A DNA stretch of 64,000 nucleotides. Origin: Candidatus Bathyarchaeota archaeon. GTDB lineage: Archaea > Thermoproteota > Bathyarchaeia > Bathyarchaeales > Bathycorpusculaceae. Numbering within the stretch: the stretch's first letter is position 1; each line of letters starts with the position of its first letter. The stretch lies in assembly GCA_963768425.1 (NCBI GenBank), contig CAVYHV010000014.1:1-64000 (forward strand), in the 5' to 3' direction. The translations under genes and the position numbers were made by a program. Below the pieces are notes generated by a model. The model was not told the origin of the DNA. It was given only the letters and a program-made list of their open reading frames with translations, and did no database searches. Shown one piece after another: positions 43,387-55,471 of the stretch.

Positions 43387-43519
43387 AGGTTGTTGCATAT
43401 AAGCATTTTGCAAAGGAATTATGGCTTTCTGAACTCGATTTGAGTTTTCACACCTATGTGAAGTCTCTTATTTAGTTTACCTTTTCCATGTTTCGCTTCC
43501 ACTTAATTCCTCACTTTTC

Positions 43520-43642
43520 CTTTCAGTCGATTGAGGCATACACCTATTCGCCCACACTAAAGAGGCAATATGGCTACGCATCCAGGCTTCCTCAATCAGT
43601 CTGACGTCCACCAATGGGGACAGTGTGAAAAACGAGGAAAGT
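43520..43642 (-). ncRNA. Bridge/seek RNA of IS110 element
   Basis: Two stem-internal-loop-stem units whose loops match the target flanks and the donor junction. Confidence 0.75.
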
Positions 43643-44632
43643 TTAGGCCTGATCATAATAAGGGCGCTTATTCTTCAACACTGAATAACAGCACATCAAC
43701 AACTTACGAGCTGCCGCCACAGTAGCAGCTCTTCTTCCTCTTCTTTCTGCTATTCCCTGATACGCCCTCGTTATGGAAGTATTGTACTTGTGAACATGCG
43801 TCTGAGCGGCTTCCACCATTACCCAACGCAGCCAACGGCTGCCCTCCTTAGTGATCCCGCCATGCCTAACCACCCCACCAGAAGCATGAGTAGACGGCAC
43901 CAAACCAGCATAACCACAAAGCCTCTCACCAAACGGAAAACGGTTAACATCGCCAATCTCACTCTTCACTAGCAACGCAGAATAATAACCAATTCCTGGA
44001 ACAGTCATCAAAAGTTTAACATCTTCATCTTCCTTAGCCAAACCCTCAAGCTGCCTAGAAAGCACTTTTATTTCCTCATCAAAAATGTCCATGATCCTAA
44101 GATAAGAATCAACAGACTCAAACTTCAAAGAGCCCAACCACTCAACACCTTTCCTAGAGAATAAACCATGTTCAGAAGGCCACTTGATTCCTTCATACGT
44201 CAGAAAACTCTTAATCTTCACACGAAGTTTGACACGTTCTCGAACCAAGAAAGCCCTTCGCCTCACTTTCTCTCTCAAATCCGACGTTTCTTTGCTTGGC
44301 ACGTATGCAAGCGGCAACGCATCCAACCTCGCCAATTCAGCAATAACCTTGGAATCAACCCGGTCGCTTTTAATCCTAGCCTCCGCAATGTAACGAGTCT
44401 TCTTAGGATGAGAAACCACAACATCAAATCCCTCGCCCGCCAGTTGCCTATAAAGCGATGCTACAGAAGTTGAAGCTTCCATCGCCACCTTGCCCACCTT
44501 AAAGTGAGACAAATACGACAGCACCTTCTCGTTGGTCATTCTCATCTGGTTGATTATTTTTCCTTCAGAATTCAAAATAGTCGCATAAGTACTATCCTTA
44601 TGCACATCCAACCCACAAACAACGGCGCTCAT
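43643..44632 (-). CDS. IS110-family DEDD recombinase/transposase
   Basis: GLDVHK, AMEA, KSDRVDS, VPGIG, YAGLVPS..SGG. Confidence 0.95.
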   Translation of the reverse strand: MSAVVCGLDVHKDSTYATILNSEGKIINQMRMTNEKVLSYLSHFKVGKVAMEASTSVASLYRQLAGEGFDVVVSHPKKTRYIAEARIKSDRVDSKVIAELARLDALPLAYVPSKETSDLREKVRRRAFLVRERVKLRVKIKSFLTYEGIKWPSEHGLFSRKGVEWLGSLKFESVDSYLRIMDIFDEEIKVLSRQLEGLAKEDEDVKLLMTVPGIGYYSALLVKSEIGDVNRFPFGERLCGYAGLVPSTHASGGVVRHGGITKEGSRWLRWVMVEAAQTHVHKYNTSITRAYQGIAERRGRRAATVAAARKLLMCCYSVLKNKRPYYDQA

Positions 44633-45045
44633 AGTATGGCGTGAGCGCCGCCCGCCCTTAACACTTCCCATACCATCAGTCTCCTTCAGGCGCGAATCCA
44701 CGTATAAATTTCTCTGCTAACTGGTTCTTATTTATGCATTTAGTGTTTTCATGTTTTTCTTTTATGTGCCATGCTAAAGACCCGACTCCGCACCTTTTGG
44801 ATGAAGGGGGCGAACAAGAGAGGAACTTGAGCGGTTGCTCGCTTAAATTTCAGCGCAGAGATAGAAATTTTCGGCTAAGCGAGTTAGTTGGCACACTTTG
44901 TTTTTGGCCAAATTCTTCACTATTCATATGTTGGTGTTTAATTGCAACAACAAATGGATAAATCTGCCAACACGACTTTCTTGTTTGAATAATCTTAAGA
45001 ATCAACTTTTGAGAAAATCTTTGCAAGAGGAGCTTATTGTAAACG

Positions 45046-54184: not shown

Positions 54185-55471
54185 GTGGGAGCAGCAGACA
54201 TAGCATGGGTGTTAATGTCAACGGCGCTTGTGATGCTGATGACGCCAGCTTTAGCTTTCTTCTACGGCGGCTTAGTCCGAAGAAAAAACCTTGTCTCCAC
54301 CCTCGTACAGTGCATGATAATCTTTGCCGTCGTAAGCCTCGTCTGGTTCTTCTGGGGTTACAGCCTCGTCTACGGACCAAGCGTCGGCGGAGTCATAGGC
54401 AACCTTTCACTTTTCGGGTTAAACAACATAACGCTCTAACCAGCGTCTACCCATCCGCTCCAGCCATCCCCGAAATACTTTTCTTCGCGTTCCAACTTAA
54501 ATTCGCGGCAATCACGCCCGCGTTGATTCTGGGTGCATGCGCGGAAAGAATCCGTTTCAAATCTCTTCTGATCTTCGTCGTTTTGTGGTCTACCCTGATT
54601 TATTCGCCTATTGCCATGTGGATATGGAACCCAAACGGGTGGCTTCATGCGCTTGGCGCCGTGGACTTCGCAGGCGGAATAGTCGTGCACATAGCCGCTG
54701 GGGTATCTGCGTTGGCGGCGGCGCTTGGTTCTCGGGAGAAGGCAGGGTTGCGTTTACTGGAAAGACCAGCTTAAATCTTTAGACCAAAAAGGCACCAGAT
54801 AAAACAGTGCCTATGGGCTCTGAGTTTAAGCCAACCAACATCCCCTACGTGATTTTAGGCGCAGGTTTGCTGTGGTTCGGCTGGTTCGGCTTTAACGGTG
54901 GCAGCGCATTAGCAGCTAACAGCATCGCAGTCTCCGCTGTCATAGCGACCAACTTGGCGGCGGCGGCAGCAGCGGTAAGCTGGATGTGATGGATTGGCTG
55001 ATCAAAGGAAAACCTTCAGCAGTCGGCATTGCAGTTGGTGCGGTGTGCGGTTTGGCGGCGATTACGGCGGCTTCAGGCTACGTTAGTTTTTGGGCTGCAG
55101 TAGTCATCGGGTTAGCTGCAGGTATAATCTCCAATTTGGTGGCTAACTGGCGGGCTGGAAGATCAAGAATTGATGATTCACTGGATGTTTTCGCTTGCCA
55201 CGGAATCGGCGGAATCATCGGCGCCATTTCAATTGGTTTGTTCGCAACTGCTGCGGTTACTCCTGGTGTTACGGGCTTAATTTATGGCAACGTTCATCAG
55301 CTTGCGGTTCAGCTTCTGGCTGTGGGTGTGGTGTCTGCCTTCGCATTTTTGGGTACCTACGCGTTGCTGAAGGTAGTTGATCGTTTCTCGCCACTTAGGG
55401 TCAGCGCAAAAGAGGAAGAAGACGGCTTAGACATGAGCCAACACGGCGAAGAAGCGTATCATCTCGAGTAA
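54185..55471 (+). CDS. amtB: Ammonium transporter 2 (several indels)
   Basis: Same motifs spread over four ORF fragments; ends SQHGEEAY. Confidence 0.9.

Follow-up and report, generated by a model that had tools for sequence, protein, structure and literature searches.

RNA-guided recombination by IS110 and IS1111 elements has been known since 2024. On the minus strand of the 64,000-nt stretch of DNA analysed here (the window) lies a candidate archaeal member of this family, and the question it raises is whether the RNA of such an element can be read against its own target and its own joined ends, and at which bases the crossover would take place. RNA guidance as such is already established for the family, and in NCBIfam the protein already goes under the name of an RNA-guided transposase. 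A catalogue of archaeal IS110 recombinases lists 662 homologues (bioRxiv 10.1101/2024.06.21.599552). Among the papers listed by full-text search, we found by title and abstract opening no archaeal element whose RNA had been read against its sites, and the term Bathyarchaeia was absent from the papers listed; the supplementary figures and tables of PMC11187229 and PMC11208160, with predicted RNAs and targets of ISfinder elements, may have archaeal members among them.

The insertion sequence and its transposase

The ends of the element were placed where constancy across relatives stops, the adjoining 2 nt and the flanks being variable, and between them lie a left end of 44 nt, a transposase gene of 329 aa and a right end of 190 nt (Table 1). 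In the protein, PF01548 (N-terminal, E 2e-21) and PF02371 (C-terminal, E 2.8e-22) were both found over their cut-offs, and NF033542, 'IS110 family RNA-guided transposase', scored 233.2 bits over profile positions 1-343 (cut-off 140). Residues D9, E52, D90, D93, S251 and G252 are invariant across six relatives; in an alignment to ISCro4 they fall on the motifs GIDV, MEA, KTDAVD and ESG, and in IS621 the serine of the ESG motif is the counterpart of S251. The alignment to IS621 covers the C-terminal half only (E 5.9e-13), and the residues were equated with IS621 D11/E60/D102/D105/S241 by motif position, the N-terminal half being without alignment to IS621. The IS1111 motif GL-P----S(T)G is present as GLVPSTHASG at residues 243-252. 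Judged by its domains the element belongs to the IS110 family, and its layout, subterminal repeats, guide order and motif are those of the IS1111 subgroup. The window element is thus a real IS110-family, IS1111-type insertion sequence in a Bathyarchaeia genome, and a preliminary description of this DNA had held it to be an archaeal IS110/IS1111 element; the two domains, the 233-bit match, the position of the RNA downstream of the gene and the order of the guides all agree with that identity, and the compact size then described also stands, at 329 aa for the enzyme and about 110 nt for the RNA.

All labelled relatives at 54-78% identity are Bathyarchaeia or Bathyarchaeota archaea. The best named relative found is an ISHvo10-family transposase of Haloferax volcanii (35% identity over 98% of the length), and the window transposase is less than 40% identical to any named element compared. 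ISHvo10 is described as a 'more diverged IS' with long non-coding regions on both sides (PMC11187229), in contrast to the 44 nt and 190 nt found here.

Table 1. Positions of the features discussed, in window coordinates.
Feature	Position	Strand	Content or basis
Whole insertion sequence, 1224 bp	43453..44676	-	ATGGTATGG... to ...CACATAGG; constant part across relatives
Left core dinucleotide TG	44677..44678	-	equals donor-loop core, 25/25 readable left flanks
Right core dinucleotide TG	43451..43452	-	equals donor-loop core, 29/30 readable right flanks
Left target half AGAC	44679..44682	-	matched by 3' side of target loop
Right target half TGAAAAC	43444..43450	-	start of shortened miniature-element inverted repeat (to ~43421)
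Left end, 44 nt	44633..44676	-	subterminal inverted repeat TATGGGAAGT (44672-44663); hairpin 44650-44642 / 44631-44623
Transposase gene, 329 aa + stop	43643..44632	-	DEDD RuvC-like and Tnp domain with GLVPSTHASG; domain searches
Right subterminal inverted repeat ACTTCACATA and terminal GG	43453..43464	-	<=2 mismatches in 21/26 related sequences scanned
A/T-rich box TAAATAA	43468..43474	-	~15 nt inside right end; similar box by eye in all classes
Putative seekRNA / bridge RNA region	43534..43643	-	target-binding, then donor-binding loop; covariance model and structure support
Target-binding loop	43588..43639	-	outer stem 43639-43634 / 43593-43588; inner hairpin 43621-43606
Target-loop 5' guide	43632-43623	-	complement of core G and right target
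Target-loop 3' guide	43602-43597	-	left target and core; then AU 43596-43595 = first two bases of left end
Donor-binding loop	43536..43579	-	stem GCG(UA) 43579-43575 / UGC 43538-43536; inner hairpin 43566-43550
Donor-loop 5' segment CCAU	43573-43570	-	complement of ATGG, first bases of element
Donor-loop 3' strand		-	AUAGG 43547-43543 (right end), UG 43542-43541 (core), UA 43540-43539 (handshake-like)

The subterminal inverted repeats agree at 9/10 positions when 44672-44663 is read directly against the reverse complement of 43464-43455. The pair is absent from the repeat-finder list (1,251 nt examined, seed 6), its exact runs of at most 5 nt being shorter than the seed. Its 10 positions fall within the 7-17 bp given for IS1111 subterminal repeats (PMC11208160), and the extensions beyond the repeats are 4 and 2 nt here (6 and 4 with the core) compared to 7 and 3 for IS1111 (PMC11187229). 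The start codon lies inside the left-end hairpin (9 nt, 100%), which shows compensatory variants in relatives, and the TAAATAA box in the right end could possibly be an archaeal TATA box facing outwards, from which the gene would be expressed in the circle alone.

The window's genome holds two copies, the second at G000 C13:102303-103554 being 97% identical and frameshifted, with an RNA region identical to that of the window copy. A 96% identical copy sits at a different site in G016, and contigs from three sequencing runs carry new flanks joined at the same element ends. No circle junction or excision joint was seen in the contigs of runs X1, X2, X3 and X15; all 20 sequencing runs were covered as contigs, in which an uncovered stretch is uninformative.

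The predicted right-end RNA and its guides

The right end encodes a predicted RNA of about 110 nt with two internal loops. Covariance model R1 matched this region with E 9.5e-22 and 95.9 bits; its match begins at the stop codon, and the plus strand gave none. Across 35 sequences, 93.7% of 668 cells were paired compared to 40-52% when the partners were slid by 1-3 columns, changes on both sides were seen in 14 of 20 pairs (57 cells) and none of 500 shuffles reached any of five measures, these counts being drawn from an alignment fitted to the covariance model's own structure. Three invariant U.G/G.U pairs are compatible with the minus strand only. Folded as a single sequence, the right end does not stand out (z -1.70, equalled by 11 of 200 shuffles), and Rfam gave no family above threshold in the region, its sole match being enod40 within the coding region (15.6 bits, threshold 45). 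RNA-library contigs of run X15 span parts of a copy about 95% alike, among them the right end and a read-through that comes from a different left flank, and were not taken as expression since an RNA library can contain DNA.

Both loops of the preliminary description were confirmed: two guide segments face each other in an internal loop closed by UUCCUC/GAGGAA and GUCC/GGAC, and a second loop with CCAUAUU and AUAGGU follows. The guide matches were likewise found exactly where they had been placed and on opposite strands, the minus-strand segment 43623-43631 (TTTTCACAC) being the exact reverse complement of 43445-43453 (9/9) and 43595-43602 (AGACTGAT), which decomposes into AGAC, TG and AT, being identical to 44675-44682 (8/8). 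The guide for the top strand is thus placed 5' of the one for the bottom strand. When the 190-nt right end was shuffled 200,000 times under a first-order Markov model, the 8-mer arose 1,368 times and the 9-mer 82 times, and no shuffle contained the two at once. Perfect 9-nt inverted pairs as such are not rare, with four (I15, I19, I21 and I22) in 1,251 nt, the guide pair being I15 and the start-codon hairpin I19. Since neither such pairs nor the fold are exceptional, the weight of the argument rests on the position of the matches in the loop and on covariation. Read in the register of the family, the window copy matches at 4/6 on each side, among the poorer matches, and its right flank needs a slip of 2 nt within a TG repeat to reach 9/9.

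For comparison, some 30 relatives of the element were taken from genomes and metagenomes of Bathyarchaeia, and these fall into nine guide classes; L039, L043 and L047 were left out before counting (contig ranges the same as those of L010, L012 and L013), L121 and L023 have no rows, and L024 and L044, with identical flanks, may represent one insertion. The six bases left of the core matched the 3' guide at 6/6 positions in 13, 5/6 in 9 and 4/6 in 3 of the 25 readable elements, and the six bases right of the core matched the 5' guide at 6/6 in 8, 5/6 in 9, 4/6 in 10, 3/6 in 1 and 2/6 in 1 of 29; L011 was a poor match on both sides (4/6 and 2/6). Since class members share ancestry and targets, only the nine classes are near-independent. 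With one representative per class, own-flank scores were 8-12 of 12 (mean 10.6) compared to cross scores of 0-8 (mean 3.9), and the own-flank total of 95/108 was reached by 1 of 362,880 permutations, which is the true pairing. Guide-target covariation in other copies, on which the first reading had been staked, was therefore borne out. Tracking is also seen within classes, L044 having TTCTTC in both guide and flank compared to TTCTTT in L040 and L013, and L055 having CGCTAA in both. L046 was read by eye outside the count table; its left flank CAGAC-TG fits class A, yet its guides are of class B (2/6) and its right core is CG, making it the exception to the agreement between left core and donor-loop core.

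The two bases that follow the core in the donor loop equalled the first two target bases at both positions in 24/30 elements, at one position in 5/30 and at neither in 1/30, and the core together with these two bases covaries with the flank between classes. The AU bases of the putative 'handshake' never vary and so show no covariation. Two registers can be drawn for the donor 5' segment, and for either of them one class speaks in favour and one against. In L130-L132, the change to GCAU/ATGC is compensatory for the pairing of CCAU with the element's first four bases, whereas a G-to-A change at left-end position 9 (L010, L038 and L124) is uncompensated. CCAU more probably pairs with the first four bases than CCAUAUU with GGTATGG, and this register is preferred because it fits more classes than the GGTATGG pairing with its two G.U pairs. 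The original proposal that the second unit matches both donor strands thus holds in that the donor loop matches both ends, while its G.U-wobble form is the less probable one. Taken together, the right end is predicted to encode a two-loop non-coding RNA complementary to the target and to the joined ends.

Crossover core and target

The position of the core follows from the relatives, in which the dinucleotides adjoining the element agree with the core of the donor loop on both sides (Table 1), the sole right-core mismatch in the table being L126 (GG compared to CG). The core is set by class, being TG in some guide classes and CG in others, and thus YG across the family. L009 splits one of the two inverted repeats of a miniature element; the intact repeat of the pair has the sequence AGAC-TG-TGTGAAAAG, and deleting L009 together with one TG gives the split repeat the same length. 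Likewise, the class B flanks of L123, L055 and L125 form perfect palindromes of 14-16 nt that are rebuilt only by removing the element and one CG. The comparisons support a YG dinucleotide, TG in the window copy, as the crossover core rather than GGT; with TG as core, ATGGT belongs to the left end of the element and GG to its right end. The empty target AGACTGAT-GGT-GTGAAAA and the circle junction CACATA-GGT-ATGGG, as first reconstructed, are therefore off by 2-5 nt, and show that short duplications beside such elements (here GGT) can mislead core assignment. For the window copy, the corrected empty target would be AGAC-TG-TG(TG)AAAA.

For the guide class of the window we propose the target AGAC-TG-TGTGAAAA. 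A DDE insertion sequence of 1.63 kb and its miniature derivatives of about 115 nt carry this sequence in their terminal inverted repeat, and the element therefore lands inside other mobile elements. A 15-nt end motif occurs 35 times at <=2 mismatches compared to 9 times in the shuffled genome, many occurrences being paired about 1.63 kb apart around a DUF772/DDE gene, and the intact inverted repeats of the target element read AGACTGTGTGAAAA. The right target half of the window copy resembles the repeat ends at C19, C15, C33, C10 and C13, and on the left side other same-class insertions (L009 and contigs of X3 and X15) share (C)AGAC-TG with the window copy, the sequence further to the left being unrelated. 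Other guide classes have unrelated targets, either short palindromes or A/T-rich sites; in uninterrupted form, the class B palindrome was found in 4/120 genomes and its reversed control in 0, which by a rough estimate is little over chance for a 14-mer. An orthologous empty site for the window copy was not found, its right flank being present in 3/119 other genomes of the genus; in G113 the left neighbour differs. Nor was an orthologous empty site for L009 found in G000, because there a tRNA gene on C32 is followed by unrelated sequence.

Proposed mechanism, alternatives and relation to known elements

Very probably, the locus holds an intact IS1111-type IS110 element that moves by RNA-guided recombination with a two-loop right-end RNA and a YG core. 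The right end would be transcribed with, or processed from, the transposase message to give the RNA of about 110 nt. In the target loop, the 5' strand would pair, on the right target half, with the top strand over the core G and about 6-7 nt, and the 3' strand with the bottom strand of the left target half and the core, followed by two more bases, AU, that match where the element begins. For the donor loop, a 3' strand of AUAGG, the core and 1-2 right-target bases is proposed, with the 5' CCAU complementary to ATGG. A tetramer of the DEDD/Ser enzyme would then join a circular element, with the putative junction ...CACATAGG-TG-ATGGTATGG..., to the target, strands being exchanged at the shared YG core by a chemistry taken from IS621 and ISEc11, and the extra bases may act as a handshake.

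An unlikely variant, though the least so among the alternatives, is that the element is of the proposed kind and the window copy itself is stranded and immobile, its site being near-cognate or altered since insertion. Within its class it has the weakest flank matches (4/6 and 4/6, compared to 5/6 on both sides of L009 and 5/6 on the right at C13), the miniature element around it breaks off after about 30 nt, synteny with G113 resumes only at 43419, and the sister copy on C13 is frameshifted. However, the window gene is open, of full length and has all catalytic residues, both ends and the RNA region are intact, the latter being the same as on C13, and the genome offers seven or more unoccupied sites that differ from AGACTGTGTGAAAA at no more than one position.

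Highly improbable is the same mechanism in the earlier geometry, with GGT as core, AGACTGAT-GGT-GTGAAAA as target and CACATA-GGT-ATGGG as junction. GGT does stand at both ends of the window copy and of classes A and C, and the 8/8 and 9/9 matches are natural in this frame. In contrast, 14 class B-type elements have GGT on the left and GGC on the right, and it is the outer 2 nt (CG..CG) that agree mutually and with the donor loop; the left ends of L049 and L130-L132 read ATGTC... and ATGCG... and hold no GGT; the intact repeats of the target element have no ATGGT inside; all classes have the 'AT' of the 8/8 match, irrespective of their target; and the class B target in GGT geometry was found in 0/120 genomes at <=1 mismatch. 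Scarcely credible, finally, is that misplaced ends or internal repeats produced the matches, the enzyme finding its site by protein-DNA contacts and the right end having no role beyond termination or regulation, for although copies of one element always share adjoining bases and so imitate a 'target', and chance 9-nt inverted pairs and a non-significant single-sequence fold would suit this view, nine classes with enzymes 54-96% identical have different flanks with both loop strands changed to match, sequence more than 6-9 nt from the element differs among insertions of one class, the stems are held by compensatory changes while the loop strands vary, and RNA dependence has been shown for family relatives (PMC11187229).

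A longer element as the explanation of the left-flank match was also considered, and was ruled out by the independent flanks and the intact inverted repeats of the target element.

IS1111-type seekRNAs are encoded in a long non-coding end downstream of the gene, with the top-strand guide before the bottom-strand guide (PMC11187229). As in ISEc11 and ISXne4 described there, the window element has a downstream non-coding region, subterminal inverted repeats, the GL-P----S(T)G motif and a predicted short RNA, with the top-strand match 5' of the bottom-strand match and the two overlapping in the target; natural re-direction by replacement of guide segments is also shared, in that study between relatives about 72% identical. 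The host here is in contrast an uncultured archaeon, nine natural guide classes compare to the one pair of that study, and the system is known from its sequence. Like IS621, the element would use a two-loop RNA for target and donor, each loop reading opposite strands around a shared core dinucleotide (PMC11208160, PMC11208158), 'handshake' bases matching the partner DNA after exchange, and a DEDD and serine active site. Unlike IS621, its RNA lies in the right end and not the left, the guide order is reversed and the core is YG compared to CT. The handshake-like bases here extend the bottom-strand guides (the 3' sides of both loops), whereas they follow the top-strand guides in IS621; in the doubtful wider reading given below, strands would, if true, be exchanged in the reverse order compared to IS621. 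A preferred site in repeated, partly palindromic mobile or repeat sequence is shared with ISPpu9 (PMC12288879) and elements cited in PMC11208160, although the invaded element here is an archaeal 1.63-kb DUF772/DDE insertion sequence with its miniatures.

In a wider reading that we hold possible but rather doubtful, Bathyarchaeia harbour a radiation of their own of IS1111-like bridge recombinases, at less than 40% identity to named elements and with at least nine natural re-aimings, in which the window lineage has specialised on the inverted repeats of the DDE element and its miniatures and uses a bottom-strand handshake and a circle-only TATA promoter. If true, the window lineage would be a transposon living inside other transposons, with its gene on only in the excised circle. 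The word 'programmable', used in the preliminary description, would rest on the natural re-targeting between classes. With one compact enzyme family and nine guide classes, the elements form a natural series from which it may be read which RNA positions read which DNA positions, and since this specificity series covers the core and the two following bases, it could guide bench work on an archaeal orthologue. A guide class aimed at the ends of another transposon bears, moreover, on the competition among mobile elements in Bathyarchaeia genomes.

Transposase gene and family assignment

The single long open frame of the element encodes 329 aa, counted from a conserved Met-Ser-Ala start, and leaves 44 nt of non-coding DNA inside the element 5' of the gene and 190 nt 3' of it. 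Its product has the two-domain make-up of IS110-family enzymes, with PF01548 (E 2e-21) and PF02371 (E 2.8e-22), and scored 233 bits against the NCBIfam model NF033542 'IS110 family RNA-guided transposase' (cut-off 140). Residues D9, E52, D90, D93 and S251-G252 were unchanged across six relatives (71-96% identity) and aligned with the GIDV, MEA, KTDAVD and ESG motifs of ISCro4, with S251 opposite the ESG serine of IS621; D9, E52, D90, D93 and S251 match the active-site positions named in Hiraizumi et al. (PMC11208158). The closest named relative found, the ISHvo10 family, shares 35% identity with the transposase. Every defining feature of the IS110 family and the IS1111 subgroup that was tested was present, and the assignment is made by these features.

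The RNA region lies 3' of the gene with the top-strand guide first, a layout shared with ISEc11 and ISXne4 and described for IS1111-type elements in Siddiquee et al. (PMC11187229), where natural re-direction between ISEc11 and ISXne4 is also reported and the family is stated to be abundant in bacteria and archaea. A bridge RNA is predicted at the right end of 93.0% of ISfinder IS1111 elements (Durrant et al., PMC11208160), and 662 archaeal IS110 recombinases have been catalogued (bioRxiv 10.1101/2024.06.21.599552).

Three further observations concern the element's ends. Starting at an in-frame ATG within the left end would lengthen the transposase by 13 residues, most of them basic, and the frame from this codon was also open in relatives inspected by eye. 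A 9-bp hairpin holds the start codon in its 3' arm; it is kept in relatives by compensatory changes in both arms, despite the 3' arm being coding, and may block translation of read-through transcripts. In the right end, an outward-facing A/T-rich box, TAAATAA, lies about 15 nt from the element's edge, and an A/T-rich box is present at equal distance in all guide classes (elements grouped by loop sequences); the box is a candidate archaeal TATA box that could drive the gene only from a circle with joined ends.

Element boundaries and core dinucleotide

The preliminary description had placed a GGT core at both sides of the element, a reading at odds with class B elements, which have GGT on the left and GGC on the right at that position; the core is a YG dinucleotide. 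All classes read xx-AT-GGTATG on the left and CATAGG-xx on the right, except that the left side continues as ATGTC in L049 and ATGCG in L130-L132. The bases xx are identical on both sides and equal two bases of the donor loop, being TG in the window's class (class A) as well as in several further classes, and CG in class B. Core and donor loop agreed in 25 of 25 elements on the left and in 29 of 30 on the right (the right core of L126 is GG). L009, a class A element, sits in one of the two inverted repeats of a miniature element; the uninterrupted repeat reads AGAC-TG-TGTGAAAAG, and the original repeat length is restored only by removing the element and one TG. The flanks of the class B elements L123, L055 and L125 form perfect 14-16-nt palindromes, rebuilt only by removing the element and one CG. 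This palindrome was present in 4 of 120 genomes, close to chance for a 14-mer, and the class B target in the earlier geometry in none of the 120 at up to one mismatch. Judged from these alignments, the element is taken to have the boundaries listed in the table, and its circle junction would be expected to read ...CACATAGG-TG-ATGGTATGG... No such junction was found among contigs of the sequencing runs X1, X2, X3 and X15, nor was an orthologous empty site found for the window copy in the 119 other genomes of the genus or for L009 in the source genome, G000, and no RNA ends were recovered.

Positions of the element, its parts and related loci (C, contig of G000)
Feature	Location	Strand
IS1111-type element	window 44676-43453	minus
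Flanking TG, left	window 44678-44677	
Flanking TG, right	window 43452-43451	
Transposase gene	window 44632-43643	minus
In-frame upstream ATG and extension	window 44671-44633	minus
Left-end hairpin arms	window 44650-44642 / 44631-44623	minus
RNA covariance model match	window 43643-43534	minus
TAAATAA box	window 43474-43468	minus
Remnant of target repeat	window about 43450-43421 and 44699-44679	
Second copy of element	C13:102303-103554 (contig end)	
1.63-kb insertion sequence (DUF772/DDE gene)	C15:28750-30383, C19:3622-5252, C14:276693-278327, C6:217869-219495, C8:199689-201491 + 201498-203122, C9:236282-237913	
Miniature forms (~115 nt)	C19:5319-5446, C15:52269-52396 + 55153-55280, C10:87311-87438	
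Distant IS110-family gene	C30:117286-118254	
Distant IS110-family fragment	C6:173447-173836	
Decayed RNA-model match, 59 bits	C11:313-418	plus
Decayed RNA-model match, 51 bits	C9:204609-204716	minus

Guide RNA and its covariation with the flanks

The guide matches first noticed in the window copy proved exact in their coordinates: 43623-43631 and 43445-43453 are reverse complements of each other (9/9), and 43595-43602 is identical to 44675-44682 (8/8), although the AT in the latter, read earlier as target, is the start of the element. When the right end was shuffled 200,000 times, the two matches never occurred together, the separate counts being 1,368 for the 8-mer and 82 for the 9-mer. Since lone 9-nt inverted pairs were not rare (four perfect ones within the 1,251 nt examined) and the single-sequence fold of the right end was not significant (z -1.70), the case rests on comparison with relatives. 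In the register of the family, the window's right flank matches its guide at 4/6, and the 9/9 match is obtained only after a 2-nt slip within TGTGTG; either this target was from the outset 2 nt short of the usual repeat end, or it lost a TG afterwards.

A covariance model of the RNA built from 28 sequences matched the window on the minus strand only, and 34 further places. In an alignment fitted to this model, and thus biased towards the modelled structure, standard pairs filled 93.7% of 668 cells compared to 40-52% after partners were shifted by 1-3 columns, changes on both sides were seen in 14 of 20 pairs, and none of 500 shuffles reached any of five structure measures. Three invariant U.G/G.U pairs are compatible only with the sense strand. 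An earlier, unfitted RNAalifold run found both inner hairpins, with 5 of 14 predicted pairs compensatory. No such RNA family was found in Rfam.

Loop strands and flanks were extracted from 33 sources after removal of three duplicate contigs, giving 31 rows (L121 and L023 were unparsed). Over the six core-adjoining bases, the left flank matched the 3' strand of the target loop (the first internal loop) at 6/6 in 13, 5/6 in 9 and 4/6 in 3 of 25 rows, with none at 3/6 or 2/6; the right flank matched the complement of the 5' strand at 6/6 in 8, 5/6 in 9, 4/6 in 10, 3/6 in one and 2/6 in one of 29 rows. L011 fitted poorly (4/6 and 2/6). Nine guide classes are distinguished, and elements sharing a class are non-independent. 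When each class was represented by a single element, scores were 8-12 of 12 against its own flanks and 0-8 against those of other classes, and the total of 95/108 for the true pairing was equalled by no other of the 362,880 permutations; with the window copy representing its class the total was 93/108, again reached by the true pairing only. Covariation of guides and targets in other copies, proposed as a check in the preliminary description, was thereby observed. Tracking was also seen within classes, L044 having TTCTTC in guide and flank compared to TTCTTT in L040 and L013, and L055 having CGCTAA in both. L046 (JBEKPM010000137.1), a class B copy with an internal deletion of ~85 nt and its left junction near locus position 1456, has a left flank, CAGAC-TG, that fits class A (2/6 against its own guide) and unequal cores, TG left and CG right; it may have arisen by rearrangement between elements or by insertion at a half-matched site, or be a chimera of the assembly. 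Half-match recombination is reportedly the topic of a 2026 preprint.

The 5' strand of the target loop complements the core G and ~6-7 nt of the right target half, after which come a U and the stem, and its 3' strand carries the left half (4-9 nt), the core and AU. The donor-loop 5' strand CCAU is complementary to ATGG, the element start (GCAU with ATGC in L130-L132; UCAU with ATGT, 3/4, in L049), and its 3' strand reads AUAGG (the element end), the core and two further bases. These two equalled the first two right-target bases in 24 of 30 elements, with one base agreeing in five and neither in one; the AU bases are invariant in all elements and outside the reach of covariation. Each 3' strand would cross the core into partner DNA, as in the product junction. 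Such extensions recall the handshake guides of IS621, here on bottom-strand guides, and by analogy we infer that they may have a handshake-like role.

Target repeats, copies and host range

The window's right flank is similar to repeats elsewhere in G000 (33 contigs, 2.96 Mb). Allowing up to 2 mismatches, 35 occurrences of their end motif were counted, compared to 9 in a shuffled genome; they lie at both ends of ~115-nt palindromic units and in pairs ~1.63 kb apart flanking a DUF772 gene (E 5.9e-19; DDE_Tnp_1 weak, 21.1 bits against a cut-off of 23), a combination that we take to be typical of IS5/IS1182-type elements. The ~35-nt inverted ends are common to the 1.63-kb element, whose transposase frame was broken in the copy examined, and its miniature derivatives, and these ends often adjoin a GGxTTTGAACC-like sequence. 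The window's class thus aims at the inverted termini of another insertion sequence and of the miniature forms derived from it. G000 has at least 7 unoccupied sites with 0-1 mismatch to AGACTGTGTGAAAA, and contigs of other runs had this element next to different left flanks ending in ...CAGACTG. In G113 (C12:20474), the closest genome with the DtxR-like gene, similarity starts only at window ~43419, 33 nt past the element, and the upstream neighbour differs, and thus the insertion site coincides with a gene-order break.

The second copy in G000 is 97% identical and its frame is broken by a 1-bp deletion. The 33 differences, this deletion among them, are confined to the first 929 nt, and the last 295 nt (the gene end and the entire right end) are identical, a pattern more suggestive of a mosaic or gene conversion than of even decay. 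Matches to the protein query (E <= 1e-20) were found in 13 of 36 further genomes of the genus and in none of 24 from other families of the order. Additional elements, 54-78% identical, came from scanning genome and metagenome collections, and since their record titles, where present, were all Bathyarchaeia or Bathyarchaeota, the element was rightly called archaeal.

G000 also carries a distant IS110-family gene and a fragment (32-34% identical), and the RNA model had no match at either locus. Two transposase-less, decayed RNA-model matches were seen as well, and the one on C11 resembles a 3' class B fragment directly after a host gene stop codon. L050 (a Nitrosotalea sp. MAG) and L051 (an uncultured archaeon) showed 43-48% protein identity and weak RNA-model matches (25-26 bits) 3' of the gene, suggesting that this RNA architecture also occurs in other archaeal phyla. 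In conclusion, this kind of element is already known, and this new member contributes a correction of the anatomy, a natural set of guide classes that is of use, and a target at a transposon end.
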